Part shown: positions 6,329-58,026 of the stretch, in pieces | How positions within the stretch are numbered: the first letter of the stretch is position 1 | Layout of the letters: each line of letters opens with the position of its first letter | NCBI GenBank assembly: GCA_035530055.1 | Contig: DATKVN010000095.1 | Coordinates: 1-59,695 of the forward strand | Direction: 5' to 3' | Length of the DNA: 59,695 bases | Source of the DNA: a bacterium | GTDB lineage: Bacteria > UBA6262 > WVXT01 | Notes under the pieces: model-generated | Told to the model about the DNA's origin: nothing | The model's input: the letters and a program-made list of their open reading frames with translations, nothing else | Databases searched by the model: none | Made by a program: the position numbers and the translations under genes

Positions 6329-6424
6329 GGAGTAGCGAAGCAAAGCTTCGCCTGCTGGACTCCTCCCGAAAGGGAGGTTTGGGCGACCACAAGGGTCGCC
6401 CCTACGCGATTCGCAAGGACTCCA
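6329..6424. repeat. Composite hairpin repeat: GGAGTAG half-element, GGACTCC-TCCC-GAAA-GGGA arm, GTAG-palindrome (GGGCGACC/GGTCGCCC+CTACGCG), GCAAGGACTCC arm
   Basis: Starts 4 nt after the skp stop. Its modules recur at 38831, 38892, 40008, 52379 and 16450. Stem CGAAGC/GCTTCG is a compensated version of CGAAAC/GTTTCG seen elsewhere. Confidence 0.85.
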
Positions 6425-6500
6425 GAATCTTTGGAATTCTCCCGAAAGCAAAGATTACGCTTTGGCGTGCCTTTTTGGATGTGGAGTAAGTTTGATGGGA

Positions 6501-7523
6501 ATGACTTTAAAGAAAATTGCTGAGCTTGTTGGTGGTGAACTCTCCGGGGATAGTAACATAGCAATCGAAGGAGTGGGTAGTCTGATAGAAGCAGAAAAAG
6601 GCGAGATTACATTCTTGGCAAGTTCCCGGTACAGGAGTCAGGTATTAAAGACTAAGGCTTCAGCTATTATTATCGGTGAGGGAGTTGAGCTACCAGAGAT
6701 TCCTTCAATACGGACAAAGAATCCCTATTTAGCTTTTGCCCAGGTAATGAAAGTGTTGGTTCCTCCCAAAAAACTACCCAGGGGAATAGACAAAACCAGC
6801 ATTCTTGGTAAGGGAGTGAAATTAGGTAAGGATGTTGCCATTGGAGCTTACGTGGTTATTGGAAAGGGCGTGGTGATTGGAGATAAGACTGTAATTTTTC
6901 CGGGGACCTACATTGGGGATAAAGCTGTGATTGGGAAGGATGGGCTAATCTATCCAAATGTTACTGTGAGAGAAGAAGTTATTATAGGCGATAATGTAAT
7001 TATTCACCCCGGTGCAGTTATTGGTGCGGATGGATTTGGTTATGCCACTGAAAAGGGAAAACATCATAAGATTCCCCAGGCGGGAACTGTGGAAATTGAA
7101 AATGGCGTGGAAATTGGAGCAAACGTTACTATCGACCGGGCAACTATGGGTAAAACCCTCATAGGTGAAGGGACGAAAATTGATAATCTTGTTCAGATTG
7201 GACATAATGTTAGAATAGGTAAAAACTGCCTTATAGTTTCCCAGGTAGGTATTTCGGGAAGTACGGTGATTGGTGATAATGTTGTCCTGGCTGGCCAGGC
7301 AGGGCTTGTTGGCCATATTACCGTTGGCGATAATGCAATTGTTGGTGCGCAGGCAGGAGTTACTAAAAGTGTTCCCGCCAATACTACTGTTTCCGGTTAT
7401 CCTGCCCGGGAACACAAGATAGCCCAAAAGATAGATGCTCAATTAATTAGATTGCCGAAATTGTATGAACAGATAAAAGAGTTAAAACAAAATATAGAGA
7501 AAACAAGAGAAAAAATAAAGTGA
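6501..7523 (+). CDS. lpxD: UDP-3-O-acylglucosamine N-acyltransferase LpxD
   Basis: [14 protein letters not shown]... N-terminus followed by a long hexapeptide (left-handed beta-helix) repeat region. ATG 6501 follows GGAGTAAG. The upstream 13 codons of the tracked ORF read into the repeat. Confidence 0.9.
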
Positions 7524-7603
7524 AAACATCAGGTCGGTCGTCCTTTAGGGTGACGGAATCGGCACTCTCAAGAGTGGGTGACCAAAAAGTTATGGAGGAA
7601 ATT

Positions 7604-8917
7604 ATGGATTTACAGAAGACTATAAAAAGAGAGAGCACTTATTCGGGAATAGGTCTACACACTGGGAACATAACTTCAGTGACCTTTAAGCCAGCACTAC
7701 CCAATTCTGGTATAAAATTTGTAAGGTCAGATTTACCAGGTAAGCCGGAAGTTGAAGCTAACATAAAGAATGTTATCAGTGTAGCACGAGGAACCACTCT
7801 GGGTAATGGCAGTTTCCAGATCCAGACGGTAGAGCATATTATGGCTACTCTATGCGGTTTGGGTATAGATAATCTCATCGTGGAAGTGAATGCTGGTGAA
7901 CCTCCTGTGGCTGATGGTAGCGGGATGCCTTTTGTGGAGACTCTGGAGAAGGCTGGTTTCCAAGAACAGAATGTAGAAAAGAACTACTTTACGATAACTG
8001 AACCTGTCAAGTTTTCCAATGAAGATGTCCATCTGGTCGTTCTGCCATCGGATGAATTTAAAGTATCTGCTACCATCGATTACAAACATAAAATTTTAAA
8101 GAGTCAGTACGGCACGTTTACCATAACCAAAGAGATTTTCGAAAAGGAGATTGCTCCCGCCAGGACATACTGTTTTGAGCATGAAATCGAATCGTTGAAA
8201 CGCCGAGGGTTGGCTCGCGGGGGTAATTTAGATAATGCGGTAGTAATTGGACAGGATGGCATTCATAATAAGGAGCTCAGATTTCCCGATGAATTTGTCC
8301 GCCACAAGATACTCGATTTAATAGGGGACATCTATTTAATAGGAAAACCTTTAAAAGCACACATTATTGCTATCCGCTGTGGACATGCTGCTAACATTGC
8401 TTTGACTAAAAGGTTAGGCGAACTCATAAAGAGATCTGCTGCTCGTCGAACGACTAAGACTTTTAAACAGGAAGGTTTTGAAGGAAAAGTCTTAGGTTTG
8501 GAAGAGATTCAGAATATAATTCCCCATCGTCCTCCTTTTCTATTTGTAGACAAAATAATTATGTCAGAGAATATGGTCAAAGCCGTGGGGTTCAAGAACA
8601 TAACTATTAATGAGGAATACTTCAAGGGACATTTCCCTGACTATCCGATTTTGCCTGGCGTTCTAATTATAGAATCGATGGCACAGACTTCCTGTGTTCT
8701 CTTCTTGGCCCGTTCGGATCTCAGAAAGAAACTGCCCTATTTTATGGCGATTAAAGAGGTTAAATTTCGTAAGCCTGTCTTCCCTGGCGATCAGCTGCAG
8801 CTGGAAGTTGAAGTTACTCGTGCCCGGGTGAGAGGAGGAAAGATTAAAGGTAAGGCGTATGTTAGGAATGAATTGGTGGCTGAGGCCGAATTTATGTTCT
8901 CCTTGGTAGATAGGTAA
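7604..8917 (+). CDS. lpxC/fabZ: Bifunctional UDP-3-O-acyl-GlcNAc deacetylase / 3-hydroxyacyl-ACP dehydratase (LpxC-FabZ fusion)
   Basis: LpxC motifs (GIGLHTG, HKILDLIGD, GHAANIAL), then a FabZ hot-dog domain (PHRPPFLFVDKI, FKGHFPDYPILPGVLIIESMAQ). ATG 7604 has GGAGGA 5 nt upstream. The tracked GTG 7520 start is probably too far upstream. Confidence 0.9.
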   Translation: MDLQKTIKRESTYSGIGLHTGNITSVTFKPALPNSGIKFVRSDLPGKPEVEANIKNVISVARGTTLGNGSFQIQTVEHIMATLCGLGIDNLIVEVNAGEPPVADGSGMPFVETLEKAGFQEQNVEKNYFTITEPVKFSNEDVHLVVLPSDEFKVSATIDYKHKILKSQYGTFTITKEIFEKEIAPARTYCFEHEIESLKRRGLARGGNLDNAVVIGQDGIHNKELRFPDEFVRHKILDLIGDIYLIGKPLKAHIIAIRCGHAANIALTKRLGELIKRSAARRTTKTFKQEGFEGKVLGLEEIQNIIPHRPPFLFVDKIIMSENMVKAVGFKNITINEEYFKGHFPDYPILPGVLIIESMAQTSCVLFLARSDLRKKLPYFMAIKEVKFRKPVFPGDQLQLEVEVTRARVRGGKIKGKAYVRNELVAEAEFMFSLVDR

Positions 8918-8972
8918 ATCGACAACGACAAGTAAGCAATGAGCATATACTACTAAACTTTTAGGAGAAAAA

Positions 8973-9746
8973 ATGAACATTCACAAAACAGCTTTAGTTC
9001 ATCCGGATGCAGTAATTGAAGAAGATGTGGACATTGGTCCATATACAATTATTGGACCGGATGTAAAGATTGGAAAAGGGACTGAGATTGGAGCTCGTGT
9101 AATAATCGAAGGAGATACTCAAATTGGCCAAAATTGTCAGATATGGACAGGAGCCATAATTGGAAATTTACCGCAGGATTTAAAGTTTAAAAGAGAAAAA
9201 ACGAGAGTCATAATTGGTGAGAATAATGTTATCCGGGAGTATGTAACCATCAACCGGGGAACGACTTCTACAGGAGAGACAACCATTGGAGATAACAATC
9301 TCATAATGGCATATGCTCATATCGCTCATGATTGTGTAATTGGCTCTAACGTGATTTTAGCTAACGTAGCTACTCTGGCGGGCCACGTAGTGATTGAGGA
9401 TAAGGCTATTGTGGGAGGGCTAACTCCAGTCCATCAGTTTGTGCGCATTGGCACATTGGGTATTGTGGGTGGAGGTTCTCGGGCAGCAAAAGATGTACCT
9501 CCCTATTGTATGGCAGCAGGGACACCCATTAGAATTTTTGGATTGAATACAGTGGGGTTACAAAGAAACAATTTCCCCAAGCATGTTAAAGCCCAGCTAA
9601 AGAGAGCCTACAAGGTTCTCTTCCGTTCCAAATTAAACACTACGCAAGCTTTGAACGTTTTGGAAAAAGAGTCAAACATCTCCGATGAATTGCTTCATAT
9701 GGTCGCCTTTATTAAAGAATCTGAGAGGGGAATCTGCAAAGAATGA
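8973..9746 (+). CDS. lpxA: Acyl-ACP--UDP-GlcNAc O-acyltransferase LpxA
   Basis: MNIHKTALVHPDAVIEEDVDIGPYTIIGP hexapeptide repeats. 257-aa size and C-terminal helical domain are typical of LpxA. Confidence 0.9.
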   Translation: MNIHKTALVHPDAVIEEDVDIGPYTIIGPDVKIGKGTEIGARVIIEGDTQIGQNCQIWTGAIIGNLPQDLKFKREKTRVIIGENNVIREYVTINRGTTSTGETTIGDNNLIMAYAHIAHDCVIGSNVILANVATLAGHVVIEDKAIVGGLTPVHQFVRIGTLGIVGGGSRAAKDVPPYCMAAGTPIRIFGLNTVGLQRNNFPKHVKAQLKRAYKVLFRSKLNTTQALNVLEKESNISDELLHMVAFIKESERGICKE

Positions 9747-10570
9747 AGATAGAGAATAGAAAGATTGGATTGATTGCTGGTAATGGGAATTTCCCTTTGA
9801 TTTTTGCACAAGAAGCGAAGAGAGTAGGAACAGAGGTGGTCGCTCTGGCAATAAAGAAAGAGACGAGTCCCAGCCTGGAAAATTTAGTAGATAGAATCCA
9901 CTGGGTCAATGTAGGACAATTGGGTGACCTGATTGAGATTTGTAAGAAAGAGGGGATAACCAGGGCAGTGATGGCCGGGCAGGTTAGACACACCCGCCTG
10001 TTCGGTCAGCTAAAGCTGGACGCAAGAGCTAGGGCTCTTTTGGCTGGAGTGAAGGATAAGAAGGCTAATTCTCTACTGGGAGCAGTGGCTGATGAGTTGT
10101 TGAGGGAGGGGATAGAACTAATAGATTCAGCTACCTATCTTTCCCACCTTTTGCCCTCTCCCGGTATTTTGACCCGCCGCAAACCTACTCAAAAGGAATG
10201 GCGAGATATCGAGTTTGGTCATAAGATGGCTAAAGAGATTGCTGGCCTGGACATCGGGCAGACAGTGGTGGTCAAGGACCAGGCCGTTTTAGCAGTGGAA
10301 GGAATGGATGGAACAGACAGCACCATAAAAAGGGGAGGGAAATTAGGCAAAGGAGATGTTGTGGTAGTGAAGGTAAGTAAACCCCAACAGGATAGGAGGT
10401 TTGACCTTCCCATTGTTGGTGAGAGGACAGTAGAAGTATTGAAACAGGCTAAAGCAAAAGTACTCGCTTTTAGTGCCCGCAGTACAATATTATTGGATAG
10501 GGAGAAAGTGGTTAAAAATGCCAACCAGAATGGTATTTCCCTGGTGGCAGTAAAAGAAGAAGAAAGTTAG
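9743..10570 (+). CDS. lpxI: UDP-2,3-diacylglucosamine diphosphatase LpxI (DUF1009 family)
   Basis: IGLIAGNGNFPLIFAQEAK N-terminus and DIGQTVVVKDQAVLAVEGMDGTD motif typical of LpxI. ATGA overlap with lpxA. No LpxH-like gene in the cluster. Confidence 0.8.
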   Translation: MKIENRKIGLIAGNGNFPLIFAQEAKRVGTEVVALAIKKETSPSLENLVDRIHWVNVGQLGDLIEICKKEGITRAVMAGQVRHTRLFGQLKLDARARALLAGVKDKKANSLLGAVADELLREGIELIDSATYLSHLLPSPGILTRRKPTQKEWRDIEFGHKMAKEIAGLDIGQTVVVKDQAVLAVEGMDGTDSTIKRGGKLGKGDVVVVKVSKPQQDRRFDLPIVGERTVEVLKQAKAKVLAFSARSTILLDREKVVKNANQNGISLVAVKEEES

Positions 10571-10578
10571 AAATCTAG

Positions 10579-10631
10579 GTAGTGTGGGGCTTTATGCCCG
10601 TAAGAATTACGCCCATAAAGGGATACACTAC
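10579..10631. repeat. Short form of the GTAGTGT...ACACTAC cruciform element
   Basis: GTAGTGTGG GGC-TTTAT-GCC CGTAA-GA-ATTACG CCC-ATAAA-GGG ATACACTAC. Same outer architecture as 52344-52452 but without the inner insert. Begins 9 nt after the lpxI stop. Confidence 0.85.
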
Positions 10632-10652
10632 GCACGAATTTTGGAGAGAGGA

Positions 10653-11588
10653 ATGGTTAGAGTTGGTGTGATTGGGGTTGGCCATATAGGTGCGCATCAT
10701 GCCCGGATTTATTCGCAAATCCCAGATGTAGAGTTGGCAGGAGTTGTAGATATTGAGCAGAAAAGAAGAGAGAAGCTCGCTCGAGAATATAATACAACTC
10801 CATATGCAAGTTATAGAGAGATTTTCAATAAGGTCGATGCAGTAAGTGTTGTGGTGCCTACCGATTTGCATTATCCTGTGGCAAAGGATTTTCTGGAAAG
10901 AGGCGTTCACTGTCTGGTAGAAAAGCCGATTACTCCCACTCTGGAAGAGGCTGAAGACCTGGTGAGTATAGCGCGCAAGAAGAATTTAATTTTACAGATA
11001 GGACACATTGAGCGGTTTAACAGCGCAATATTGGAGGCACAAAAATATATCAAGGAGCCAAAGTTTATCGAAGCTTACAGACTTGGACCTTACGACCCAC
11101 GCACTTCCAACATTGGAGTAGTGCTTGACTTGATGATTCACGATATCGACATTGTGCTCTATCTGGTACGCTCACCAGTGAGAAGTATCGATGCTATTGG
11201 CGGTAGTATCCTCTCTCAGAATGAAGATATTGCCAATGCCAGAATTAATTTTCAGAATGGCTGTGTAGCTAATATATCAGCAAGCCGGGTTTCCTTGGAA
11301 AAGTTTCGTAAGATTAGAATATTTCAAAAGGATGTCTATATTTCGTTAGATTATGCTAAGCAGAGTTTAAAAATTTATCAGAAAAAGGAAAAAGAAATTA
11401 AATCAATGAAGGATATGATGGTTTTGAGACCGCAACTGAAGAAGACAGACCCCTTGAGAGAAGAGTTGACACATTTTACTCAATGTGTGGAGAGAGGCAG
11501 GAAGCCCTTGGTTTCTGGCAAACATGGTCGGGACGCTCTGGAGATTGCTTTGGAAATTCTCAAGAAAATCAAGGAAAATTTGGGATAA
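10653..11588 (+). CDS. Gfo/Idh/MocA-family NAD-dependent oxidoreductase, GnnA-like by position (UDP-GlcNAc 3-oxidation)
   Basis: MVRVGVIGVGHIGAHHARIY Rossmann N-terminus and EKP motif (CLVEKPIT). Placed between lpxI and lpxB. ATG 10653 follows GGAGAGAGG. The tracked 23-codon extension translates the repeat. Confidence 0.7.
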   Translation: MVRVGVIGVGHIGAHHARIYSQIPDVELAGVVDIEQKRREKLAREYNTTPYASYREIFNKVDAVSVVVPTDLHYPVAKDFLERGVHCLVEKPITPTLEEAEDLVSIARKKNLILQIGHIERFNSAILEAQKYIKEPKFIEAYRLGPYDPRTSNIGVVLDLMIHDIDIVLYLVRSPVRSIDAIGGSILSQNEDIANARINFQNGCVANISASRVSLEKFRKIRIFQKDVYISLDYAKQSLKIYQKKEKEIKSMKDMMVLRPQLKKTDPLREELTHFTQCVERGRKPLVSGKHGRDALEIALEILKKIKENLG

Positions 11589-11591
11589 GCG

Positions 11592-15897: not shown

Positions 15898-15905
15898 GAA
15901 AAGAA

Positions 15906-16388: not shown

Positions 16389-16449
16389 GTTTCAGAAATT
16401 AAAAGATAGTTTGTTCGTCGCCCGGGAATTTCTTGACGTGGAAAGGTCT

Positions 16450-16630
16450 GGAGTCCTCCCGAAAGAGGCTGTGTCATAATTAGATTTTTTGTTTGGTAGC
16501 CGCAACCTTTAGGTTGCGTTCTCGACGGAGAAATTACGCAGGCTGAAGCCTGCGACTACCCAAAACAGGGTTGCGACACAGCCTCGAAAGGGAGGGCTTA
16601 AAACGGAACCCTTGTTTTCGCAAGGACTCC
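16450..16630. repeat. GGAGTCC...GGACTCC element whose first hairpin is split and extended by an insertion
   Basis: GGAGTCC-TCCC-GAAAG-AGGCTGTGTC ... GACACAGCCT-CGAAAG-GGAG ... CCTTGT-TTTC-GCAAGG-ACTCC. AGGCTGTGTC/GACACAGCCT form a new 10-bp stem around the nested element. Confidence 0.8.
16495..16560. repeat. Nested Y-element, GGTAGC subfamily
   Basis: GGTAGC CGCAACC-TTTA-GGTTGCG (18 nt) CGCAGGC-TGAA-GCCTGCG ACTACC. Same outer-stem plus two-hairpin plan as the GGAGTAG elements. Confidence 0.8.
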
Positions 16631-16658
16631 ATATCACAAACTATCTTTTAAATAGATT

Positions 16659-17704: not shown

Positions 17705-18077
17705 GTATGCTCGGGATTTGGTTCGCTCGCTGACAATTTTTTGTAAGCATACCGATTAAGAATCGGGATGCGGATTAGGGGGTTTGGGGGAAATAATCTG
17801 ATTTCCCCCAAGGGGTGACAGTGAGCCCCGATGGAATCGGGGTGAACGCCAGAGGGGTGAAACCCCTATGGAAGTATTCCCGAAGGGAATATCTTCTTTG
17901 AGCACCGCCAAAAATCTCAGGAGTTTATCCCGTCTTCGCGGGACTAAACTCTGATCTTCGATTTTTGGCTAAAAATTCTAATGCTCGCTACACCAAATCC
18001 TCTCGCATTAGGGGCATAGGTCGTCTTCGTTTTTTGGCTGAAATTCCAATAATTCTTCACAAACTATCTTTTAAATA
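17704..18077. repeat. Array of at least 8 different hairpins, ending in a 21-nt copy of the 16634-16654 terminus
   Basis: GGTATGCT/AGCATACC; CCGATT-AAG-AATCGG; GGGGGAAAT/ATTTCCCCC; CCCCGAT-GGA-ATCGGGG; AGGGGT-GAA-ACCCCT; TATTCCC-GAA-GGGAATA. Long nested hairpin GCCAAAAAT...ATTTTTGGC (17907-17969). TCACAAACTATCTTTTAAATA at 18057-18077. Confidence 0.8.
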
Positions 18078-18111
18078 TCGATAAATAAGCAAAGCAAAAG
18101 ATGGAGTGGAT

Positions 18112-25109: not shown

Positions 25110-25873
25110 ACGGCAAAAAAAGAAACAATTTTAGCTGTTACTATAGACGCGGATGACTGACATCTCATTCCTTAAGTGATAGGTTCATCTTTTTCAGGTA
25201 TTTTCTGTCGATCTTTTTAGTAAGTGTAAAAGAGACACGATTTTCTCGGCGATTTTACCAATCGAATGGTCGGTGCTCTCGATTTCTTGGGTATTCTAGT
25301 CGAAGAGGATGTGGAACTTTCTTTGGCTGATGGGTTCTCTTCGATATTTAAACAAGAAAACGGAAGCTCTTCTCGAATTTTTTAAATTTTAAAAAGCTAT
25401 TATGATGTTATCTCAAAAGATGAGCTGCTTTCTATTCTGGGAGCGTTGAGAGTTACCTTAGAGAACTTTGAACAGGTGCTTACTGGGAGAGCGACTATTT
25501 CCGGAGAATTAATCAAAAAGAATTAAAAGTTGATATATATTGTTCTTTATAATTCTAATTTGATGAGAAGAATAAATGAATAAGAACGAGAAACAAAAAT
25601 TAATGACAGAACAGGGGAACACTTTTATTTCCTTACCAAAGAATTGTAAGCAATAGAATAAGCCCGGAAAAAATTGAAGACTGGCAAAATAAAAAATCTT
25701 TTAGTTTATATAAAGAAATACATCCAGTTATGAAATTTATATTAAATTTAGATTTCATTATTCCTCAAATGTTTTAAGAGATTAAAAACATCTTTAGAAG
25801 TTTCTCTTTTAGGAGATCACCTTTATTTATTATTTTTTAACATTCATTTGAATATTGCTGATAACTTAATTTA
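25110..25873. other. 764-bp ORF-poor, AT-rich spacer containing start-less ORF fragments (probable decayed genes)
   Basis: No ORF of 60 aa or more on either strand. A start-less 45-codon frame ends at about 25524 (...YYDVISKDELLSILGALRVTLENFEQVLTGRATISGELIKKN*). Composition is visibly AT-richer than the flanks. Confidence 0.5.
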
Positions 25874-32493: not shown

Positions 32494-32625
32494 AAACCGG
32501 AATCCTTTCGAAGGTAATACCTCCTCTAAATAAATTCTTGCTTATACGAGAGATATTACCTTGAAACAAATTTTTATCAAATTCCACGACAGGACATTCT
32601 AGCTACCCAACTATTCATGGTACGC

Positions 32626-32655
32626 TTGACAAAACGAAGTTTTTTATGTTATATT
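32626..32655 (+). promoter_or_regulatory. sigma70-like promoter of the hrcA operon
   Basis: TTGACA (32626-32631), 18-nt spacer, TATATT (32650-32655), immediately upstream of CIRCE. Confidence 0.6.
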
Positions 32656-32661
32656 ACTGTA

Positions 32662-32688
32662 TTAGCACTCGGATAGTAAGAGTGCTAA
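32662..32688 (+). promoter_or_regulatory. CIRCE operator (HrcA binding site)
   Basis: TTAGCACTC-GGATAGTAA-GAGTGCTAA matches the CIRCE consensus TTAGCACTC-N9-GAGTGCTAA perfectly, 15 nt upstream of hrcA. Confidence 0.95.
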
Positions 32689-32702
32689 TTTAGGGGTGAG
32701 CG

Positions 32703-34305: not shown

Positions 34306-34317
34306 TTGAGAAAGTAG

Positions 34318-34375
34318 GGGTGGCCCGCCGTGGCCACCCGAGGAAAGGGACGACACAGCGGTCGTCCCCTACGGG
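34318..34375 (-). repeat. Two GC-rich palindromes; the second is a GTAG-palindrome (REP-like) variant
   Basis: GGGTGGCC-cgccgt-GGCCACCC (34318-34339). GGGACGAC-acagcg-GTCGTCCC followed by CTACGGG (34347-34375), a compensated variant of GGGCGACC...GGTCGCCCCTACGCG. Confidence 0.75.
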
Positions 34376-34390
34376 ATTGAATTCGTTTGA

Positions 34391-34419
34391 CACTCCAACC
34401 TCCCTTTCGAGAGGACTCC
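34391..34419 (-). repeat. Inverted copy of the GGAGTCC-TCCC-GAAA arm
   Basis: ACTCCAA CCTCCC-TTTC-GAGAGG ACTCC is the reverse complement of GGAGTCCTCCCGAAAGGGAGG with 2 mismatches. Confidence 0.7.
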
Positions 34420-34427
34420 AAATAATT

Positions 34428-34477
34428 GGAGTAGCACCGCTTGCGGTGCGTTTACGCGAAACAAGTTTCGCTACTCC
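34428..34477 (-). repeat. GGAGTAG Y-element, opposite orientation to the 38831/57501 copies
   Basis: GGAGTAG CACCG-CTTG-CGGTG CGTTTACG CGAAA-CAAG-TTTCG CTACTCC. The right 24 nt equal the reverse complement of the 38831 left half. The other hairpin differs by two compensated base pairs. Confidence 0.85.
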
Positions 34478-34486
34478 AAAAATTCT

Positions 34487-34545
34487 GGAGTCCCCCGATA
34501 CATCGGGATGGTCGCCCAACTGGTCAAACTTTCGTTTGACACTCC
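34487..34545. repeat. GGAGT...ACTCC Y-element
   Basis: GGAGT C CCCGA-TACA-TCGGG (15 nt, includes a GGTCGCCC fragment) GTCAAAC-TTTC-GTTTGAC ACTCC. Confidence 0.8.
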
Positions 34546-34574
34546 AAAACTCAAATTCTAAAGGAGGTTAGTAA

Positions 34575-36482: not shown

Positions 36483-36567
36483 TGTGCCTACAGATGTCAG
36501 GAGTGTGAAACGAAAGTTTCACTGGTCAAGCTTTTGCTTGACACTCCAAGAAACCATTGTAGGCACA
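36483..36567. repeat. GGAGT Y-element (36500-36547) enclosed by a 10-bp outer stem
   Basis: TGTGCCTACA (36483-36492) ... GGAGT GTGAAAC-GAAA-GTTTCAC TG GTCAAGC-TTTT-GCTTGAC ACTCC ... TGTAGGCACA (36558-36567). Confidence 0.8.
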
Positions 36568-36587
36568 GATTCAATCTGGATTTCCTT

Positions 36588-36641
36588 GGAGTAGCGGACT
36601 TTAGTCCGCGTTTTAAGACGCAGGTTGAAACCTGCTACTCC
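36588..36641 (+). repeat. GGAGTAG Y-element
   Basis: GGAGTAG CGGAC-TTTA-GTCCG CGTTTTAAGAC GCAGGT-TGAA-ACCTGC TACTCC. Confidence 0.85.
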
Positions 36642-36647
36642 AACATT

Positions 36648-37838: not shown

Positions 37839-37901
37839 AATGTCCCAGAGTTACAAAGCCCGAACCTTCAAACTTATCACTTTTGAACGGGGTGTTTAAC
37901 A

Positions 37902-38672: not shown

Positions 38673-38830
38673 TTGAGTGACTCTTATCAGGGGAGGGGGA
38701 AGAACAGTAAACTTAAAGCATTTTCTTAAGTTTTATATGATATGAAAAGCATAAATATTCATTAAGATTTTGACAAATTTTTAAAGTAATTTATGAACTT
38801 TAATTATGGTATTTGGGAGTCCAGAATTTT

Positions 38831-38883
38831 GGAGTAGCGAAACTTGTTTCGCGTTAATAACGCAGAGCAAGCTCTGCTGCTCC
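38831..38883 (+). repeat. GGAGTAG Y-element
   Basis: GGAGTAG CGAAA-CTTG-TTTCG CGTTAATAAC GCAGAG-CAAG-CTCTGC TGCTCC. 51/53 identical to 57501-57553. The outer stem has a T.G pair (G.U-compatible on the + strand). Confidence 0.9.
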
Positions 38884-38891
38884 AGTCTTTT

Positions 38892-38949
38892 GGAGTCCTC
38901 CCGAAAGGGAGGTTTTGGTAGAAGGGAACCTTGCTTTCGCAAGGACTCC
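38892..38949. repeat. GGAGTCC...GGACTCC element
   Basis: GGAGTCC-TCCC-GAAA-GGGA-GG (16 nt) CCTTGC-TTTC-GCAAGG-ACTCC. Confidence 0.85.
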
Positions 38950-38993
38950 AGGTATTTCGAATTTAGTTATTAGTGTTTTGAAAGGAGAAAAGA

Positions 38994-39953: not shown

Positions 39954-39982
39954 AAAGTGACAGGCACTTTTTCGGTTCGGGA

Positions 39983-40070
39983 GTAAATTTTACGGGGACA
40001 AGCCTTTGGGCGACCATAAAGGTCGCCCCTACGCGACCAAAATCATTACGGGCATAAAGCCCTACACTAC
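39983..40070 (-). repeat. 5'-truncated, inverted copy of the long GTAGTGTAG element at 52344-52452
   Basis: 88 nt align to the reverse complement of 52344-52431 with 2 mismatches. Contains GGGCGACC-ATAAA-GGTCGCCC+CTACGCG and ends ...GGGCATAAAGCCCTACACTAC. The left arm is absent. Confidence 0.9.
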
Positions 40071-43993: not shown

Positions 43994-43997
43994 AAAA

Positions 43998-44050
43998 ATG
44001 GGGTCAGTTCTATTTTTGAAAAATGTGAAAAATAGAGCTGACCCCATTTT
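43998..44050 (+). terminator. Intrinsic terminator (20-bp stem plus T-run)
   Basis: ATGGGGTCAGTTCTATTTTT (43998-44017), 10-nt loop, AAAAATAGAGCTGACCCCAT (44028-44047) with one T.G pair, then TTTT. Confidence 0.7.
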
Positions 44051-44077
44051 CAGGCCGAGGGAAAGGGCGGGGAAAGA

Positions 44078-49355: not shown

Positions 49356-49412
49356 AATTTTTCCGTCACTCTGTCCCGTCCCGAAACCGGAACGGGGTCG
49401 GGAAAGGGCGAC

Positions 49413-49500
49413 CAACCAGTAGGCTGGAGTCCTTGCGAAAGCAAGGTCGTATACCTCCCGCCCTTTCGGGCGGACTCCAAATGCATAGAGCTATCTGGTT
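49413..49500. repeat. GGAGTCC Y-element (49426-49478) inside an 8-bp outer stem
   Basis: CCAACCAG ... GGAGTC CTTGC-GAAA-GCAAG (11 nt) CCCGCCC-TTTC-GGGCGG ACTCC ... CTGGTTGG. The left arm equals the reverse complement of the 38929-38949 arm. Confidence 0.85.
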
Positions 49501-49501
49501 G

Positions 49502-49561
49502 GGCACTCTTTAGAGTGCCACTTCTATTCGCGGATAACCAAACTTCCGCTTTAGTGGAAGT
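49502..49561 (+). repeat. Two TTTA-loop hairpins
   Basis: GGCACTC-TTTA-GAGTGCC (49502-49519). ACTTCCGC-TTTA-GTGGAAGT (49542-49561), with one G.T pair on the + strand. Confidence 0.7.
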
Positions 49562-49567
49562 AATTTT

Positions 49568-49592
49568 ATACTTGACAAAATTAGTCAGATTT
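49568..49592 (+). promoter_or_regulatory. Candidate IscR type-1 operator overlapping the -35 box
   Basis: ATACTTGACAAAATTAGTCAGATTT matches 22 of 25 positions of the type-1 consensus ATASYYGACTRwwwYAGTCRRSTAT as I remember it. Confidence 0.5.
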
Positions 49593-49600
49593 GTTAAATT
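49572..49600 (+). promoter_or_regulatory. sigma70-like promoter of the iscR-iscU operon
   Basis: TTGACA (49572-49577), 17-nt spacer, TAAATT (49595-49600). Confidence 0.6.
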
Positions 49601-49673
49601 ATTTTAGGAATTAATTTATGTAGAAAGTCAGATATGGAAAATGTAGTCTAAGGAAGAAAAGGAGTGAGGAATC

Positions 49674-50171: not shown

Positions 50172-50564
50172 ATGGCAACTCAACAATATAGCCAGAAAGT
50201 AATGGAACATTTTATGCATCCCAGGAATGTAGGACAGATCGAAAATCCTGATGGAGTTGGCCATGTAGGCAATCCTATATGCGGAGATATTATGGAACTC
50301 TATATTAAGGTTAAGGACAATATAATCGTTGATGCCAAGTTTAAGACCTTTGGTTGTGGAGCAGCTATTGCCACAAGCTCCATGGTTACTGAATTAGTCA
50401 GAGGGAAAACTATTGAACAGGCGCTGGAGATATCGAATAAGACTGTGGCTGAAGCGCTGGACGGTTTGCCTCCGGTAAAGATGCATTGCTCTATGCTGGC
50501 TGAGGAAGCCTTGAAATTGGCGATAGAGGACTATCGTAAGAAACAGAAGAAGGACAAAGTTTAA
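50172..50564 (+). CDS. iscU: Fe-S cluster assembly scaffold IscU/NifU-N
   Basis: GNPICGDIM, FKTFGCGAAIATSS and KMHCSMLAEEA: the three conserved IscU cysteine motifs. Confidence 0.92.
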   Translation: MATQQYSQKVMEHFMHPRNVGQIENPDGVGHVGNPICGDIMELYIKVKDNIIVDAKFKTFGCGAAIATSSMVTELVRGKTIEQALEISNKTVAEALDGLPPVKMHCSMLAEEALKLAIEDYRKKQKKDKV

Positions 50565-50675
50565 AAGATAGTTAGTTCACCCAACCCCTACACAGGGGCT
50601 GGGTTCATCATCAAGGAATTTCTTAATTTGGAAAGGTCTGGAGTCCTCCCGAAAGGGAGGTGAAAAATGACTCTG
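50561..50675. repeat. Left-end copy of the 16399 composite element, with an extra hairpin and a truncated GGAGTCC arm
   Basis: TTAAAAGATAGTTAGT matches the 16399 TIR at 15/16 and overlaps the iscU stop. ACCCAACCCCT-ACAC-AGGGGCTGGGT hairpin. GGAAAGGTCTGGAGTCCTCCCGAAAG is identical over 26 nt to 16440-16465. Confidence 0.85.
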
Positions 50676-50698
50676 ACCCCTTTTTCTAAGGGAGGGAT

Positions 50699-52343: not shown

Positions 52344-52452
52344 GTAGTGTAGGGCTTTATGCCCGTAATGGTTTTGGTCGCGTAGGGGCGACCTTTATGG
52401 TCGCCCAAAGGCTTGTCCCCGTAAAAATTACGCCCATAAAGGGCTACACTAC
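52344..52452 (+). repeat. Long GTAGTGTAG...CTACACTAC element with a nested GTAG-palindrome
   Basis: Starts 1 nt after the cysK stop. GTAGTGTAG GGC-TTTAT-GCC CGTAAT [GGTTTTGGTCGC GTAG GGGCGACC-TTTAT-GGTCGCCC AAAGGCTTGTCCCCGTAAAA] ATTACG CCC-ATAAA-GGG CTACACTAC. The bracketed part is absent from 10579-10631. Confidence 0.9.
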
Positions 52453-52476
52453 TCATAAATTTTAGGATGTTTTGAA

Positions 52477-52881
52477 ATGGAAGAAAAAGGAAAAGTAGTA
52501 AAAATTGATAATGGAGTGGCTCAGGTAGAGATGGAACGGACTTCTGCTTGTGGACGATGTGGGATATGCCTGCAGAGTTCTGGGGATAAACCGATTTTAT
52601 ACGCAGAAGATTCTTTAGGAGCCCGCCCTGGGGATGAGGTACTGGTTTCTGTAGAGAGTAAACAGGTATTAAAGGCAGCGTTTCTTATCTATCTTTTTCC
52701 GCTGGTTGGCTTAATTGGTGGATATTTTCTGGGTCGAGCTGTATTGGGAACGGAGAGGACAGGCATTATTTTTGCAGGGCTAGGGTTTTTTACTACCCTC
52801 TTCCTCCTCTACCAATACGATAAGAGATTGAAGGCTCAAAAGAGTAAGGAAGCAAAAATTGTTCAAATAGTCAAAGGATAA
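52477..52881 (+). CDS. RseC/MucC-family (SoxR-reducing-system-like) small membrane protein
   Basis: GKVVKIDNGVAQVEMERTSACGRCGIC N-domain followed by two TM helices. Confidence 0.7.
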   Translation: MEEKGKVVKIDNGVAQVEMERTSACGRCGICLQSSGDKPILYAEDSLGARPGDEVLVSVESKQVLKAAFLIYLFPLVGLIGGYFLGRAVLGTERTGIIFAGLGFFTTLFLLYQYDKRLKAQKSKEAKIVQIVKG

Positions 52882-52950
52882 AGAAATTGAATATACTTGA
52901 AATTCTTTCGGGAATATTTTTAGAAAAGATAAAATAAAAAGGAAAATAGA

Positions 52951-54120: not shown

Positions 54121-54219
54121 AATTCAGTCAAAAAAGCCTTGTAAAATAAAGGAAAAAATCTTTCATAAGTGGGGAAGGAATATATTTTTGTAGGTTCAAG
54201 AGATATATATAAATTTATT

Positions 54220-54241
54220 CCTCCCCCTTAAATGGGGGAGG
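54220..54241. repeat. Hairpin flanking the DUF559 gene (upstream)
   Basis: CCTCCCCC-TTAAAT-GGGGGAGG, 7 nt before the GTG start. Confidence 0.7.
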
Positions 54242-54247
54242 ATAAAG

Positions 54248-54637
54248 GTGGGGGTGAAATTGGGTAAGAAGTTAGTTAATACTGGAAGGAATCTTAGAAA
54301 AAATTCTACTGAGGTAGAAAGACATTTATGGAGATATTTAAGAAGAAATCAGTTAGAAGGATTTAAATTCCGACGGCAACAACCGACAGGAAGATATATA
54401 GTGGATTTCGTTAATTTTAAAAGAAAGATTGTAATAGAGGTAGATGGCGGACAACATGCAATTGGAAATACAAAAGATAGGAAAAGAGATAAGTGGTTAA
54501 GGGAGGAAGGGTTTGAGGTTCTAAGGTTTTGGGATAATGATGTTCTTAAAAATATAGAAGGTGTTTTAGAAGTTATAAGGGACAAACTCTTACTATCCCC
54601 TCACCCTAACCCTCTCCCACAAGGGGAGAGGGAATAA
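54248..54637 (+). CDS. DUF559 (Vsr-like endonuclease fold) domain protein
   Basis: LRKNSTEVERHLWRYLR...GFKFRRQQPTGRYIVDFV...IEVDGGQH...RDKWLREEGFEVLRFWDNDV. The tail PHPNPLPQGERE is encoded by a hairpin repeat. Start is uncertain (GTG 54248, GTG 54254 or TTG 54260). Confidence 0.8.
   Translation: MGVKLGKKLVNTGRNLRKNSTEVERHLWRYLRRNQLEGFKFRRQQPTGRYIVDFVNFKRKIVIEVDGGQHAIGNTKDRKRDKWLREEGFEVLRFWDNDVLKNIEGVLEVIRDKLLLSPHPNPLPQGERE
54610..54632. repeat. Hairpin forming the 3' end of the DUF559 ORF
   Basis: CCCTCTCCC-ACAAG-GGGAGAGGG, ending 2 nt before the stop codon. Confidence 0.7.
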
Positions 54638-54682
54638 AACAAAGATTTTTGACAATATTTTCAGTAAAAAAAGGAGAAGAAT

Positions 54683-55480
54683 ATGGTAAAGAAACTATTT
54701 GCACCAGTGGGAGAAAAAGAGGTTACACGAGCTATTGTAGATGAGTTTGCCAAACAGTTTTCCCAGTATGTGGAAAGCGATTGTCTTATTATAGGTGGTG
54801 GGCCCAGTGGATTAATGGCCGGGAAGGAACTGGCCACTCGTGGACTTAAAATTTTAATTGTAGAGAGAAATAATTATCTTGGTGGGGGTTTCTGGATTGG
54901 CGGGTACTTAATGAATAAGATAACCGTGAGAGAACCTGCACAGAAAGTCCTGGAAGAACTGGCTGTGCCGTATAAGGAAGTAAGCAAGGGGCTCTATGTA
55001 GCAGATGGACCTCATGCTTGTTCCAAACTTATTGGAGCTACCTGTGACAGTGGTGTGAAGTTTGCCAATATGACTGTTTTTGACGACCTCGTGCTCCGTG
55101 AGGGAGGTAAAGTGAATGGTGCTGTGATTAACTGGACGCCTATATCTTATTTACCTCGTGAGATTACCTGCGTTGACCCTGTGGCCTTAGAAGCCAAAAT
55201 GGTGATTGATGCCACTGGACACGATGCCTCGGCAGTGAGAAAATTGGAAGAGAGAGGACTAATAAAAATAAAGGGTATGGGAGCAATGTGGGTAGAGAGG
55301 TCTGAGAACCTGGTAGTGGAACATACTGGGGAAGCCTATCCTGGCCTTGTGGTAGTGGGTATGGCTGTGGCTACTACTTATGGTCTTCCCCGCATGGGAC
55401 CTACTTTTGGAGCAATGCTTCTTTCGGGAAAGAGAGGGGCAGAGGTAGTATTGGAAAAGTTGGGTATAAAAAAGAGATGA
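54683..55480 (+). CDS. thi4: Thiazole synthase Thi4, archaeal-type (no sacrificial Cys; presumed sulfide-dependent)
   Basis: [18 protein letters not shown] motif. DATGHDA (55208-55228) where yeast THI4 has, as I recall, SCGHDG. Confidence 0.8.
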
Positions 55481-56277
55481 AAATTTTCCTTTATGATGGT
55501 GGCAAGACTGAAGCTTTAGATATCGGGGAAATAGCCCGGTATCTTAAGGAGAACTCAGGTGGAGCCAAGGTTGAGGTTAGAGGCGATTTTATTGGTCAGG
55601 TTACAAAAGGAATGGAGGATTCCTCCCTGAGAGAGTTGGCTGAAGAGATAGCCAGATGTAAAATTCGAGACCTTCGTAGTTACCATTCTACTTTTGATCC
55701 ACTCACTGCTGAGGTAGAATACGAGAAAAGGAGACTGCAAGATTCAGAGAATAGAAGTTTGGGCATACTTTATGACGGCTTCAAGCTCCAGACATTATAT
55801 CAGGACTTGATAACAGAAGAAGAACGCAATTGGCATTGTCTGGCGATTATTTTTACAGACCAATTATTCGGAACCTGGGATGAACATAACCGTCGTTACC
55901 ATGCCCGGGTAAGCGTGTATGGATTTCCCACCATTATTTCCACTACGGGTATCGTGGAAGCTCCAGCTAAACCCAGGGAATTCTATTTACAGAAACAATG
56001 GGGAATTGATACAATTACCCTGAAGAAAAGATTTAAAGATAAGTTTATAGACTACGACGACACGCGGCTGACTGAAGTAATGAAAGGCTACTGTATACAG
56101 TCTCTATTTTTTTACATATCGGGCGAGCCTTTTTGTGAAGATAATAAATGTAGACTCTATAACGCACACTGGCAGGAAGAGGTAATAAATGCCCAGCTTG
56201 CCAGGCCCGAATTTTGCAAAAAACACGAGATGCTAATCAACAACATCAGGAATGGCAGACTGAAAATTAACCATTAA
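55477..56277 (+). CDS. Hypothetical protein, archaemetzincin-like scaffold lacking the HExxH motif
   Basis: ATGA-coupled to thi4. The C-terminal pattern C-x4-C-x-L-x19-C-x2-H (56134-56226) mirrors the archaemetzincin CX4CXMX17CXXC motif, but FFYISGEPF replaces HExxHxxGxxH. Confidence 0.4.
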
Positions 56278-56283
56278 AAGATT

Positions 56284-56323
56284 CATCCAGCTCCTGAGAC
56301 CCTGATTTTTGCAGGGGCTGGAT
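56284..56323 (+). promoter_or_regulatory. 12-bp leader hairpin upstream of the homocysteine-synthesis gene (possible cis-regulatory RNA)
   Basis: ATCCAGCTCCTG ... CAGGGGCTGGAT with one U.G pair. Loop AGACCCUGAUUUUUG contains CCCU, complementary to the AAGGAGG SD at 56330-56336. Confidence 0.3.
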
Positions 56324-56341
56324 TCACATAAGGAGGAATGA

Positions 56342-57499
56342 ATGCCTAAAACTTTTGCAGAGATTAATGAAAAGATTAGAAATGGCGAAGCAGTGGTGGT
56401 AACTGCTGAAGAGGTTATCGACCTTGTAAAAGAAAAGGGAGAAAAAAAGGTTGCTAAGGAAGTAGACGTGGTAACCACAGCTACCTTTGGTCCAATGTGT
56501 TCCTCTGGAGCTTTACTGAATTTTGGGCATAGCGATCCGCCAATAAAGATGCAGAAGGTGTGGCTGAATGATGTTCCAGCTTATGCGGGGGTGGCGGCAG
56601 TTGATGCTTATATTGGAGCAACTGAGCTTTCTGAAACCAAATGGATGGAATATGGCGGAGCACATGTGATTGAGGATTTGATTTCAGGCAAAAAGGTGAG
56701 GCTTAGAGCTACTTCGTATGGAACGGATTGTTATCCCAGAAAAGAATTCGACTCTTACATTACCTTAGACTCGATCAATCAGGCAATTCTTTTTAATCCC
56801 AGGAATGCTTATCAAAATTATTCAGTAGCTACTAACTCATCGGATAGAACAATCTATACATATATGGGTATTCTCTTGCCCAACTTTGGTAATGCAAATT
56901 ATTGTAACTGTTCACAGCTCTCACCTTTAATTAATGACCCCTTATATCGCACTATCGGTGTGGGAACCAGGATATTTCTCGGTGGAGCACAGGGTTACAT
57001 TGCCTGGGAAGGCACACAACATAATCCCCGCCAGAAGAGGGATGAGAAAACTAAAATACCGATAGCTCCTGCAGGAACCCTGTGTTTGATAGGCAATTTG
57101 AAAGAGATGAGCCGCGATTTTCTAAGGGCAGCAATCTTCTACAAGTATGGTGTTACCCTTACAGTAGGGGTGGGGATACCCATTCCTATTCTCGATGAAG
57201 AGATGGCACATTTTGTCTCCATCTCCGATGAGGAGATATATACTACAATACTTGATTACAGTGTCCCCAGAAGAGAAAAACCAAATCTGGGCAGAGTAAG
57301 TTATAAAGAGTTAAGAAACGGGGAAATTGAAATAAAAAAGAAGAGGGTTCCTACTGCACCACTCTCCAGTCTTTACAAAGCCAGGGAGATAGCTCAGATT
57401 CTGAAAGAGTGGATTAAAAAAGGGAAGTTCTTCTTACAAGAGCCCATTCAACGGTTACCGGTGGATGAGAAATTTAAGCCTTTAGATATTAGACGTTAA
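56342..57499 (+). CDS. COG1900/DUF39 homocysteine biosynthesis protein (aspartate-semialdehyde sulfurtransferase type)
   Basis: KTFAEINEKI..GEAVVVTAEE..VDVVTTATFGPMCSSGA and GTRIFLGGAQGYI motifs recall the methanogen MA1821 family. Followed by a NIL-ferredoxin. Confidence 0.75.
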   Translation: MPKTFAEINEKIRNGEAVVVTAEEVIDLVKEKGEKKVAKEVDVVTTATFGPMCSSGALLNFGHSDPPIKMQKVWLNDVPAYAGVAAVDAYIGATELSETKWMEYGGAHVIEDLISGKKVRLRATSYGTDCYPRKEFDSYITLDSINQAILFNPRNAYQNYSVATNSSDRTIYTYMGILLPNFGNANYCNCSQLSPLINDPLYRTIGVGTRIFLGGAQGYIAWEGTQHNPRQKRDEKTKIPIAPAGTLCLIGNLKEMSRDFLRAAIFYKYGVTLTVGVGIPIPILDEEMAHFVSISDEEIYTTILDYSVPRREKPNLGRVSYKELRNGEIEIKKKRVPTAPLSSLYKAREIAQILKEWIKKGKFFLQEPIQRLPVDEKFKPLDIRR

Positions 57500-57500
57500 T

Positions 57501-57553
57501 GGAGTAGCGAAACTTGTTTCGCGATAATAACGCAGAGCAAGCTCTGCTACTCC
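57501..57553 (+). repeat. GGAGTAG Y-element
   Basis: GGAGTAG CGAAA-CTTG-TTTCG CGATAATAAC GCAGAG-CAAG-CTCTGC TACTCC. Starts 2 nt after the stop codon. Followed by TTGTAGGCA, as at 36651. Confidence 0.9.
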
Positions 57554-57585
57554 TCTTAATCGTTGTAGGCAATAAGGAGGTTTAC

Positions 57586-57996
57586 ATGGCAAAAAAGAGG
57601 ATAGTGTTAACTTTTCCTCCCGAATTGGTTGACCAACCGATAATTTACCGCCTGGTTAAAGATTACGATTTAGTTCCAAATATCCTACGCGCTCAGGTCA
57701 CACCTAAAGAGGAAGGAAAAATGGTACTGGAGTTGGAAGGGGGCAAGGAAGGAATTAACAAGGGTCTGAAATATCTGGAAGACATAAAAGTTGATGTCCA
57801 GCCACTGGCTAAGGATATAAAACTGGATGAACAGGAATGTACTTCGTGTGGGGCATGTATAGCTGTGTGCAGTCCTAAGGCGCTGTCCATGAATAAAGAG
57901 AGCTGGAAATTGGAATTCGATCGGAACAGATGCCTCCTCTGTGGTCTCTGTGTACTCGCTTGCCCTCTTGGGGTCATTCAGGTAGAGTTCGAATAA
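57586..57996 (+). CDS. NIL-domain / 2x[4Fe-4S] ferredoxin protein (partner of COG1900)
   Basis: MAKKRIVLTFPPELVDQPIIYRLVKDYDL (NIL domain). CTSCGACIAVCSP and CLLCGLCVLACP. ATG 57586 follows AAGGAGG. The tracked upstream 24 codons translate the repeat. Confidence 0.8.
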   Translation: MAKKRIVLTFPPELVDQPIIYRLVKDYDLVPNILRAQVTPKEEGKMVLELEGGKEGINKGLKYLEDIKVDVQPLAKDIKLDEQECTSCGACIAVCSPKALSMNKESWKLEFDRNRCLLCGLCVLACPLGVIQVEFE

Positions 57997-58004
57997 TAAG
58001 AAAA

Positions 58005-58026
58005 GGAGTAGCAGGCTTTAGTCTGC
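58005..58026 (+). repeat. GGAGTAG half-element supplying the mnmA Shine-Dalgarno
   Basis: GGAGTA GCAGGC-TTTA-GTCTGC, with one G.T pair on the + strand. No closing CTACTCC. Confidence 0.6.

Follow-up and report, generated by a model that had tools for sequence, protein, structure and literature searches.

Contig DATKVN010000095.1 of the bacterial genome assembly GCA_035530055.1 (59,695 nt, analysed over its full length and referred to as the window in the following) carries about 50 genes, every one of them on the plus strand, and features a GC content of ~0.42 and a positive GC skew. A scan of the window for tRNA and transfer-messenger RNA genes did not return any. A glycan-synthesis cluster occupies ~18.7-32.6 kb and is followed by hrcA-grpE-dnaK-dnaJ. 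Thirteen intergenic gaps hold hairpin repeats which had been noticed in a first-pass annotation made from the sequence alone, and the sequences quoted there were found in these gaps. We consider it very probable that the modules are repetitive extragenic palindromic (REP) elements, present as singlets, as REP doublets (REPINs) and as clusters resembling bacterial interspersed mosaic elements (BIMEs), and that they are non-autonomous and served by REP-associated tyrosine transposases (RAYTs). This reading builds on the anatomy of the repeats, the covariation of their stems, their propagation as whole units, their fast turnover and the existence of cognate RAYT genes bracketed by matching units.

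Each unit consists of a conserved 5' tag, a stem of 5-8 bp that is perfect or nearly so, and a small loop of 3-6 nt. At least five families can be told apart. They fall into two tag classes, TGGAGT (families A, B and E) and GTAG (families C and D), with the following consensus sequences:

Family A: TGGAGTA-GCnnnn-(CTTG/TTTA/TTCA)-nnnnGC-G
Family B: TGGAGT-CCnnnC-GAAA-GnnnGG
Family E: TGGAGT-GTnnnnC-GAAA-GnnnnAC
Family D: (TCGC)GTAG-GGGnnnCC-loop-GGnnnCCC
Family C: GTAGTGTAG-GGC-TTTAT-GCCC-GTAA

Directly 5' of intergenic hairpins in the lineage to which the window belongs, no other sequences come close in frequency to TGGAGT(A) and GTAG. The motif GT[AG]G is present at the 5' foot of the hairpin in families A (GGA-GTAG-C), C (GTAGTGTAG) and D (GTAG-GGG). 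Loops are dominated by GAAA/TTTC, followed by TTCA/TGAA, TTTA/TAAA and CTTG/CAAG, the same types that had been listed before. Units are arranged as singlets, as head-to-head doublets of the REPIN type and as nested, BIME-like clusters or composites. In a head-to-head doublet, both tags pair and enclose two hairpins that differ in sequence, and such doublets fold far better as single-stranded DNA than shuffled sequences do (z = -3.4 to -6.1). Repeat finding recovered the same families in both orientations and in varied combinations, just as the first-pass annotation had it, while its notion of one modular system had to be given up in view of at least five families, two tag classes, different RAYT clades going with A-type and B-type units, and a largest gap that is occupied by an element resembling a MITE (miniature transposable element with inverted repeats). 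The curated elements of the window are the following (coordinates, strand where assigned, description):

6328-6352, plus strand: A singlet (GGAGTAGC + GCGAAGC-AAA-GCTTCGC), 3 nt past the stop codon
6356-6425, minus strand: B+D composite, made up of a B unit (6356-6377), a minus-strand D unit (6378-6409) and a B unit in truncated form (6410-6425), and found as a whole in 6 loci
6432-6459, plus strand: degenerate B-like unit
10579-10631: C head-to-head doublet, short form (GTAGTGTrGGGC..GCCC GTAA / TTAC GCCC..GGG.TACACTAC)
16449-16632: B head-to-head doublet in which a nested insert of 119 nt interrupts the left hairpin
16466-16584: the nested insert of this B doublet, bounded by a 10-bp inverted repeat (AGGCTGTGTC/GACACAGCCT) and holding a GGTAGC-tagged doublet (16494-16561)
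17705-18105: MITE-like element, not a tagged REP, with terminal inverted repeats (TIRs) GGATTTGGT...ACCAAATCC (about 17714-18003) and nested untagged hairpins
34314-34372: D head-to-head doublet (GTAG + GGGTGGCC.. / ..GGTCGTCCC + CTAC)
34383-34421, minus strand: truncated E unit (34383-34397), then B unit (34398-34421)
34427-34478: A head-to-head doublet in which the right unit, once reverse-complemented, is identical to the RAYT-adjacent REP TGGAGTAGCGAAACTTGTTTCGCG
34485-34546: B-tagged CCCGAT hairpin variant (34485-34516, plus) and E unit (34520-34546, minus)
36499-36548: E head-to-head doublet with GGAGTGT tags, 6 near-full-length copies in the lineage
36587-36642: A head-to-head doublet of unlike stem variants (GGAC/GTCC and AGGT/ACCT)
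38830-38883: A head-to-head doublet, 96% identical to 57500-57553, spacer included
38891-38951: B head-to-head doublet (TGGAGTCC-TCCCGAAAGGGAGG ... CCTTGCTTTCGCAAGG-ACTCCA)
39979-40070, minus strand: reverse-complement copy (97%) of the long C element 52344-52435, D unit included
49424-49480: B head-to-head doublet; several independent assemblies break in its gap
50639-50660, plus strand: B singlet, missing from the orthologous gap of relative L063
52344-52452: long C element, a C head-to-head doublet around a D unit (52378-52409), 1 nt past the stop codon; the orthologous gap of L063 has a B unit
57500-57553: A head-to-head doublet, present nearly full-length 9 times in 8 loci, with RAYT-flanking REPs matching each half
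58004-58027, plus strand: A singlet with an imperfect stem

A strict scan for the tag GGA[G/C]T, followed after no more than 2 nt by a hairpin whose stem had to be perfect if shorter than 7 bp and could contain one mismatch if longer, returned 21 units in the window, one of which (44379, a one-mismatch match) resides clearly inside a real gene. The concatenated non-coding DNA of the window (4,516 nt) holds 18 strict units, compared with 0.50 +/- 0.69 expected and a maximum of 3 in 200 dinucleotide shuffles. With 1,139 nt in total, the curated tagged elements make up 44% of the gap DNA (2,616 nt over all 13 gaps) and 1.9% of the window. About 38 curated units in 59.7 kb amount to a density of ~0.6 units per kb, and the REP density of E. 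coli is apparently several-fold lower, by a rough comparison rather than a computed one. Tagged hairpin units are present in 12 of the 13 gaps, the exception being 17705-18105, for which the strict scan did not report any tagged unit. The gaps had been described as filled by modules, and this wording is too strong for 49356-49673 and 50565-50698, which consist mostly of promoter or leader DNA and of which tagged elements cover only 18% and 16%, respectively. Likewise, modules had been claimed for nearly every gap longer than about 60 nt outside of the glycan cluster. This is true for the 12 gaps with tagged units, while five gaps of at least 60 nt (37839-37901, 43994-44077, 52882-52950, 54121-54247 and 56278-56341) carry no module, nor does the 209-nt gap at the edge of the glycan cluster (32494-32702). 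The reported absence of the repeats from two regions was borne out: the strict scan found zero GGAsT units in 18.7-32.6 kb and only low-quality matches inside genes, e.g. 44379, in 40.1-49.3 kb. The glycan cluster combines its lack of REPs with a lower GC content (0.34-0.40), as expected of recently acquired DNA; it also contains a stretch of 764 nt (25110-25873) with neither repeats nor an open reading frame (ORF) of 80 or more amino acids.

Six gaps feature a first tagged element very close to the upstream stop codon: 52344 (+1), 57500 (+1), 6328 (+3), 58004 (+8), 10579 (+9) and 34314 (+9). To this extent, the earlier observation that elements tend to start near stop codons stands; in the remaining gaps the distance is +20 to +75 or more, and lineage-wide the median distance to the upstream stop is 53 nt, and just 30 of 218 units are no more than 10 nt away from it. 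Between co-directional genes, 134 units are found in sense and 84 in antisense orientation, on chromosomes with strongly co-oriented genes. In this lineage-wide census of orientation and stop distance, as elsewhere, a crude ORF mask inflates the counts of 'coding' positions. The sense bias fits replication-linked, strand-specific insertion and is also compatible with selection acting on transcripts.

Stem covariation was assessed with a test anchored on tag and loop only, in which the stem itself was ignored. All four variable stem pairs are kept in 149 of 161 B units, among which six complementary variants occur, and in 48 of 52 A units, whose stems come in eight or more variants. The variable positions thus stay complementary across many variants, and it is the hairpin itself that is conserved and not its sequence. 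Larger arrangements recur as a whole, spacers included, with nine near-full-length copies of the A doublet, six of the E doublet and six of the B+D composite. Within the window, 38830-38883 is 96% identical to 57500-57553, and 39979-40070 is 97% complementary to 52344-52435.

Assemblies from ENA, JGI and Logan contain the window sequence, gaps included, on 10 contigs with 97.6-100% identity, mostly 99% or higher, and about half of these contigs break inside the gap 49356-49673. Independent assembly of this sequence was seen for at least 10 samples. The B 21-mer GGAGTCCTCCCGAAAGGGAGG gave more than 120 matches in over a dozen metagenome-assembled genomes (MAGs), at least seven of which stem from the lineage of the window. 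Independent assemblies and matches elsewhere show that the repeats are neither an artefact nor confined to this contig, a doubt that the first-pass annotation had itself raised. The identical B 21-mer occurs in MAGs with GC contents of 0.37-0.54 that are labelled as different phyla, which hints at horizontal spread or at strong convergence. Relatives with coding DNA 84-95% identical to that of the window align with it up to the gap edges and then diverge, their orthologous gaps holding other modules or none. The iscU-cysE gap comprises 134 nt in the window and ~30 nt without any module in L063, and the cysK-rseC gap contains a C element in the window and a B unit in L063. Comparisons between MAGs revealed clean presence or absence of C, GGTAGC and B+D elements and of a 177-nt cluster, and regular target duplication was not seen. 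In particular, no consistent target duplication was found at the insertions of A, B, C and E elements that were examined. A clean target-site rule was sought in the comparisons of filled and empty sites and discarded, the events being too heterogeneous. L063 (WJOT01000074; 1100-2400) also contains an extra 1.2 kb between its rseC-like and nifS-like genes that the window (52930-52936) lacks and that, judged from its sequence, resembles a gene of the permease type with a heavy-metal-binding domain fused to it.

The relatives have been labelled by their submitters as Clostridia, Elusimicrobiota or simply 'bacterium'. For LepA, inconsistently labelled relatives are found at 82-96% identity, after which values drop to 64% or less, and identity does not exceed 64% to any named taxon. 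Together with the conflicting labels this points at a deep, poorly placed lineage. Genes for an outer membrane (LPS, BamA, TamB-like) are apparently present, as judged by eye and from the gene labels of the first-pass annotation.

RAYT genes with matching repeats at their borders were found for both A-type and B-type units. Contig CAYOFG010000028 (L220) from a sister MAG (CAYOFG, 88-91% nucleotide identity to the window) encodes RAYT P0132 between argG and argH. P0203, a RAYT from the same 90%-identity cluster, occupies the same argG-argH site in contigs L221-L226 from the window's own sample series, and contigs of the window type occur together with RAYT contigs in samples ERZ27256808, ERZ27256834, ERZ27256847, JGI 3300031539 and JGI 3300031669. 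In L221 (sample ERZ27256827), TGGAGTAGCGAAACTTGTTTCGCG is situated 7 nt before the ATG of the RAYT gene, the inverted ..AGAGCAAGCTCTGCTACTCCA follows just past its stop codon, and A doublets reside outside of both. The A units bracketing this gene are found exactly in the window, at 38830, at 57500 and, reverse-complemented, at 34455. The two species that share this argG-argH site of the RAYT gene are ~89% identical, and the shared site fits vertical inheritance. A RAYT gene located between mraY and murD, as seen in L142, is absent from lineage MAG L079.

RAYT searches of the window and ~0.8 Mb of lineage loci yielded a sole match, in locus L105 of a Scalinduaceae MAG. The encoded protein reaches 93.6 bits on NF047646 (cutoff 80) and its gene has arrays of B units on both sides. 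B units on both sides were found at seven RAYT loci of other organisms in all (L105, L132, L136, L138, L139, L140 and L141), with proteins 55-97% identical to that from L105; four of the homologues (55-74% identical) are encoded on other contigs and two more came from the metagenome scan. At these loci the B units exhibit compensatory stem changes (TCCC/GGGA, TCAC/GTGA, TCTC/GAGA and TTCC/GGAA). The metagenome scan also revealed a sister RAYT clade (35-47% identical) that is flanked by GGAGTAGC hairpins, i.e. by family A. Other members of the clade are flanked by further TGGAGT-tagged hairpins (GGAGTGC, which is E-like; GGAGTTC; GGAGTTAAC), and more distant RAYTs by plain GTAG tags. On the NCBIfam model NF047646 (REP_Tyr_transpos), P0203 scores 85.0 and P0132 90.3 bits, the range over the RAYTs being 85.0 to 113.3, and the IS200 model, with its cutoff of 55, gives P0203 only 21.8 bits. 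The best match among solved structures is E. coli TnpA-REP (4ER8). Both the HUH motif (HFH or HYH) and the catalytic tyrosine in NY(T/I)xxNPVKH are present, and Q, D and R occupy E. coli positions 95, 100 and 104. This Q/D/R pattern is that of RAYTs acting on small perfect palindromes (PMC6006769, PMC8266576). By sequence, the RAYTs resemble group 3, an assignment that follows the Q/D/R pattern and not a phylogeny of subclasses.

A further arrangement concerns the start of the RAYT gene. In four of the seven B-type RAYT loci, a sequence resembling a Shine-Dalgarno motif is offered solely by the upstream REP hairpin, through its 3' arm (GGGAGG or GGAAGG), 8-10 nt from the ATG:

L105, 3371-3404
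L132, 9975-10003
L136, 9975-10003
L140, near 350-378

The hairpin may therefore control translation of the RAYT. As a wider notion, TGGAGT/ACTCCA tags and the CCUCCC-GAAA-GGGAGG hairpin could mimic Shine-Dalgarno and anti-Shine-Dalgarno sequences, such that REPs were co-opted as translational insulators or couplers in operons, including self-regulation of B-type RAYTs; we hold this to be rather unlikely. We rate as likelier that the TGGAGT-tagged REPs and their RAYT clade constitute an undescribed superfamily present across several uncultivated phyla. As a general source of Shine-Dalgarno sequences, B units were rejected, only 5 of 154 being so placed.

By analogy with characterized systems, the RAYT, an HUH/Y1 enzyme also termed TnpA-REP and related to the transposases of IS200/IS605, would recognize the folded, single-stranded hairpin with its conserved 5' tag in a strand-specific manner. 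Cutting and rejoining of the units by the enzyme would then allow them to spread into intergenic DNA without target-site duplication. Binding, cleavage and rejoining of the folded single strand via tag and hairpin are described for the systems of E. coli, Stenotrophomonas maltophilia and Marinomonas (PMC8266576, PMC6006769). A secondary use by the host is conceivable as well, and the elements may protect mRNA 3' ends or influence translation past stop codons. Several points weigh against mobile REPs served by RAYTs. Cleavage and mobilization of the units by the enzyme are carried over from the three systems just mentioned. The B (GGAGT-CC) and E (GGAGT-GT) tags do not contain the canonical GT[AG]G and have the conserved TGGAGT in its place. 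Neither a phmmer search with the E. coli RayT as query nor a tblastn search with 120 RAYTs revealed a RAYT gene in the window, and P0203 was placed in the genome of the window by shared samples, synteny with the sister MAG and matching divergence, not by physical linkage. A B-type RAYT was not found in phmmer and tblastn searches of the lineage loci, and two look-ups of such proteins in the samples of the window (P0031 and P0022) both led to other organisms. RAYTs flanked by C or D units were found nowhere, and a RAYT bordered by E-like tags was met only in another organism. With no flanked RAYT in the lineage, families B, C, D and E may be orphaned or mobilized in trans. Finally, one insertion (L048 versus L049) is flanked by an 11-nt duplication that does not agree with a simple IS200-like model.

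Could the hairpins instead be RNA elements selected by the host, i.e. mRNA 3' stabilizers, processing sites, attenuators or terminators, rather than mobile DNA? Many units reside inside operons, six begin within 9 nt of a stop codon, the sense orientation is commoner between co-directional genes (134 versus 84), GAAA loops of the GNRA type are common, a few imperfect stems are due to G-T pairs, and in 5 of 154 B units the GGGAGG arm serves as Shine-Dalgarno sequence of a real ORF. Yet both orientations are common, relatives with coding DNA 90-95% identical hold other modules or none in orthologous gaps, the same units bracket RAYT genes, Rfam does not contain matching families, and even a lax terminator pattern is met by a mere handful of units by chance, such as the B hairpin at 38897. 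A secondary role at the RNA level is possible, but it would leave origin and spread of the units unexplained, and we regard the proposal as improbable. More improbable still is that the units are classical MITEs, that is deletion derivatives of insertion sequences with DDE-type transposases, mobilized via TIRs and creating target-site duplications. Head-to-head doublets do have inverted termini (TGGAGT...ACTCCA), one insertion of a GGTAGC doublet has a duplicated ATTGTTTAGGA on its flanks, and the element in gap 17705-18105 features TIRs and a GGGAT direct repeat apparent from a filled and an empty site. A, B, C and E insertions, in contrast, lack consistent duplications, singlets carrying the same tag are plentiful, and the only transposase-like gene that was both searched for and found beside the units is that of the Y1/HUH RAYT and never one for a DDE enzyme, so that a MITE nature probably applies to the element in gap 17705-18105 only. 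An origin of the repeats as assembly or chimera artefacts is next to negligible: contigs do often break at repeat clusters, but the gaps were reproduced in 10 independent assemblies with 97.6-100% identity, and more than 120 matches of the 21-mer are spread over more than a dozen MAG assemblies, the lineage of the window accounting for at least seven of these. A function of REPs as intrinsic terminators was also considered and dismissed, since few hairpins fit even a lax pattern of hairpin and T-run (e.g. 38897 and 34318) and most lack a T-run.

The element in the largest gap, 17705-18105, is separate from and unrelated to the tagged REPs and is MITE-like with TIRs. A filled site in L012 (139 nt; 4499-4639) can be compared with an empty site in L019 (4421-4425), and GGGAT is directly repeated at both junctions. 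The copy in the window has been enlarged by nested untagged hairpins, while the orthologous copy in L097 contains a different nested insert. A non-coding block of 112 nt (17895-18006) is 95.5% identical to its L097 orthologue, compared with 84-88% for the flanking genes, and does not match Rfam; it may act as a regulatory element or encode a small RNA within the MITE.

Further repeats and signals were noted in the vicinity of the REPs. The motif CAAACTATCTTTTAA occurs three times, at 16399-16413 (minus), 16638-16652 (plus) and 18061-18075 (plus), the first two forming an inverted pair around the REP cluster at 16.4-16.6 kb. A related copy is located upstream of argG in the sister MAG (L220, near 1090-1105), and the motif could represent an operator, part of a promoter or a terminus of some other mobile element. 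A separate repeat (TCCCCTCAC...CCCTCTCCC-ACAA-GGGGAGAGGG..TAA) at 54596-54637 and 59117-59158 makes up the final codons together with the stop codon in two ORFs that are unrelated to each other, for a DUF559 protein and MnmA, and a related copy is again found upstream of argG in L220. A perfect CIRCE operator (TTAGCACTC-N9-GAGTGCTAA; 32662-32688) precedes hrcA-grpE-dnaK-dnaJ, in which REP clusters are inserted between grpE, dnaK and dnaJ. The REP cluster at 34320-34571 gives rise to a spurious ORF of 83 amino acids, and 10584 and 57514 are false upstream GTG/TTG starts; translation probably begins at 10653 and 57586 instead, with a GGAGG motif in front of either start.

The kind of element is known, as tagged REPs, REPINs and REPtrons, and only the sequences are new; we are not dealing with a novel type of genetic system. 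Earlier work (PMC3733652, PMC2817692, PMC3116915, PMC6006769) has described REPs with tags, their dimers in both head-to-head and tail-to-tail arrangement, the coexistence of families, sub-families set apart by complementary stem changes, and the flanking of RAYT genes. The GTAG-tagged REP superfamily (Di Nocera et al., 2013, PMC3733652), to which E. coli REP/BIME and Stenotrophomonas SMAG sequences belong, comprises palindromes of 20-40 nt with an unpaired conserved 5' tag, complementary-stem sub-families and singlets, head-to-head or tail-to-tail dimers and clusters, located mostly between co-directional genes and downstream of coding regions, with several families per genome. All of this is matched here, and families A, C and D carry GTAG itself. 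Differences exist in that the commonest tag in the window is the longer TGGAGT, that GT[AG]G is lacking in B and E, that there is no sequence similarity to E. coli, that the head-to-head dimers pair via their tags around two differing hairpins and thus adopt a Y-shaped fold, and that the host belongs to an uncultured, deep-branching lineage. In REPIN-RAYT systems (Bertels and Rainey, 2011, PMC3116915; RAREFAN preprint, bioRxiv 10.1101/2022.05.22.493013) inverted doublets likewise recur whole with their spacer, and the RAYT is flanked by its own REPs (PMC3116915), here at the constant chromosomal site argG-argH; in contrast, the identical B 21-mer spans MAGs labelled as different phyla. Group 3 TnpA-REP/REPtrons of S. 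maltophilia and Marinomonas (Corneloup et al., 2021, PMC8266576) share small perfect palindromes and conserved loops with our elements. As in subclasses 2.5/2.7 (Quentin et al., 2018, PMC6006769) and group 3, D and R replace E100 and H101 in the RAYTs, and Q95 and R104 are conserved. The REPtron order, REP followed by RAYT and an inverted REP, is that of L221, whereas the RAYT is only ~25% identical to E. coli RayT and the B and E tags differ. IS200/IS605 elements (IS608, ISDra2) resemble the system in their Y1 HUH enzyme, in single-stranded hairpins with a 5' guide tetranucleotide and in the absence of target duplication, but the RAYT scores just ~22 bits on the IS200 model (cutoff 55) and the repeats are non-coding, tens of nucleotides long and do not represent IS ends around a transposase gene.

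The first-pass annotation had likened the modules to enterobacterial BIMEs with different sequences, and rightly so: the cluster architecture is alike, and the sequences differ from the Y/Z REPs and defined linkers of E. coli. Sequence kinship to E. coli BIMEs was rejected, as blastn did not find a match in 5,426 E. coli genomes. Rfam returned nothing at the gathering threshold and only chance-level matches at E values up to 1, and in the literature no paper was found that contains the motifs GGAGTCCTCCC or GTAGGGGCGACC. The question whether the family is already catalogued thus has a divided answer, as the kind of element is (PMC3733652, PMC6006769, PMC3116915) and its specific sequences are without an Rfam or E. 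coli match.

REP clusters such as those described here break metagenome assemblies and generate spurious ORFs and false start codons, and their turnover is fast enough for use as strain markers. To our knowledge, REP/REPIN-RAYT systems have been studied almost entirely in Proteobacteria. Our observations extend them to an uncultured lineage and define a group of TGGAGT-tagged REPs with matching RAYT clades for A-type and B-type tags, which provide new pairs of enzyme and substrate for the reading of tag and hairpin by HUH enzymes.

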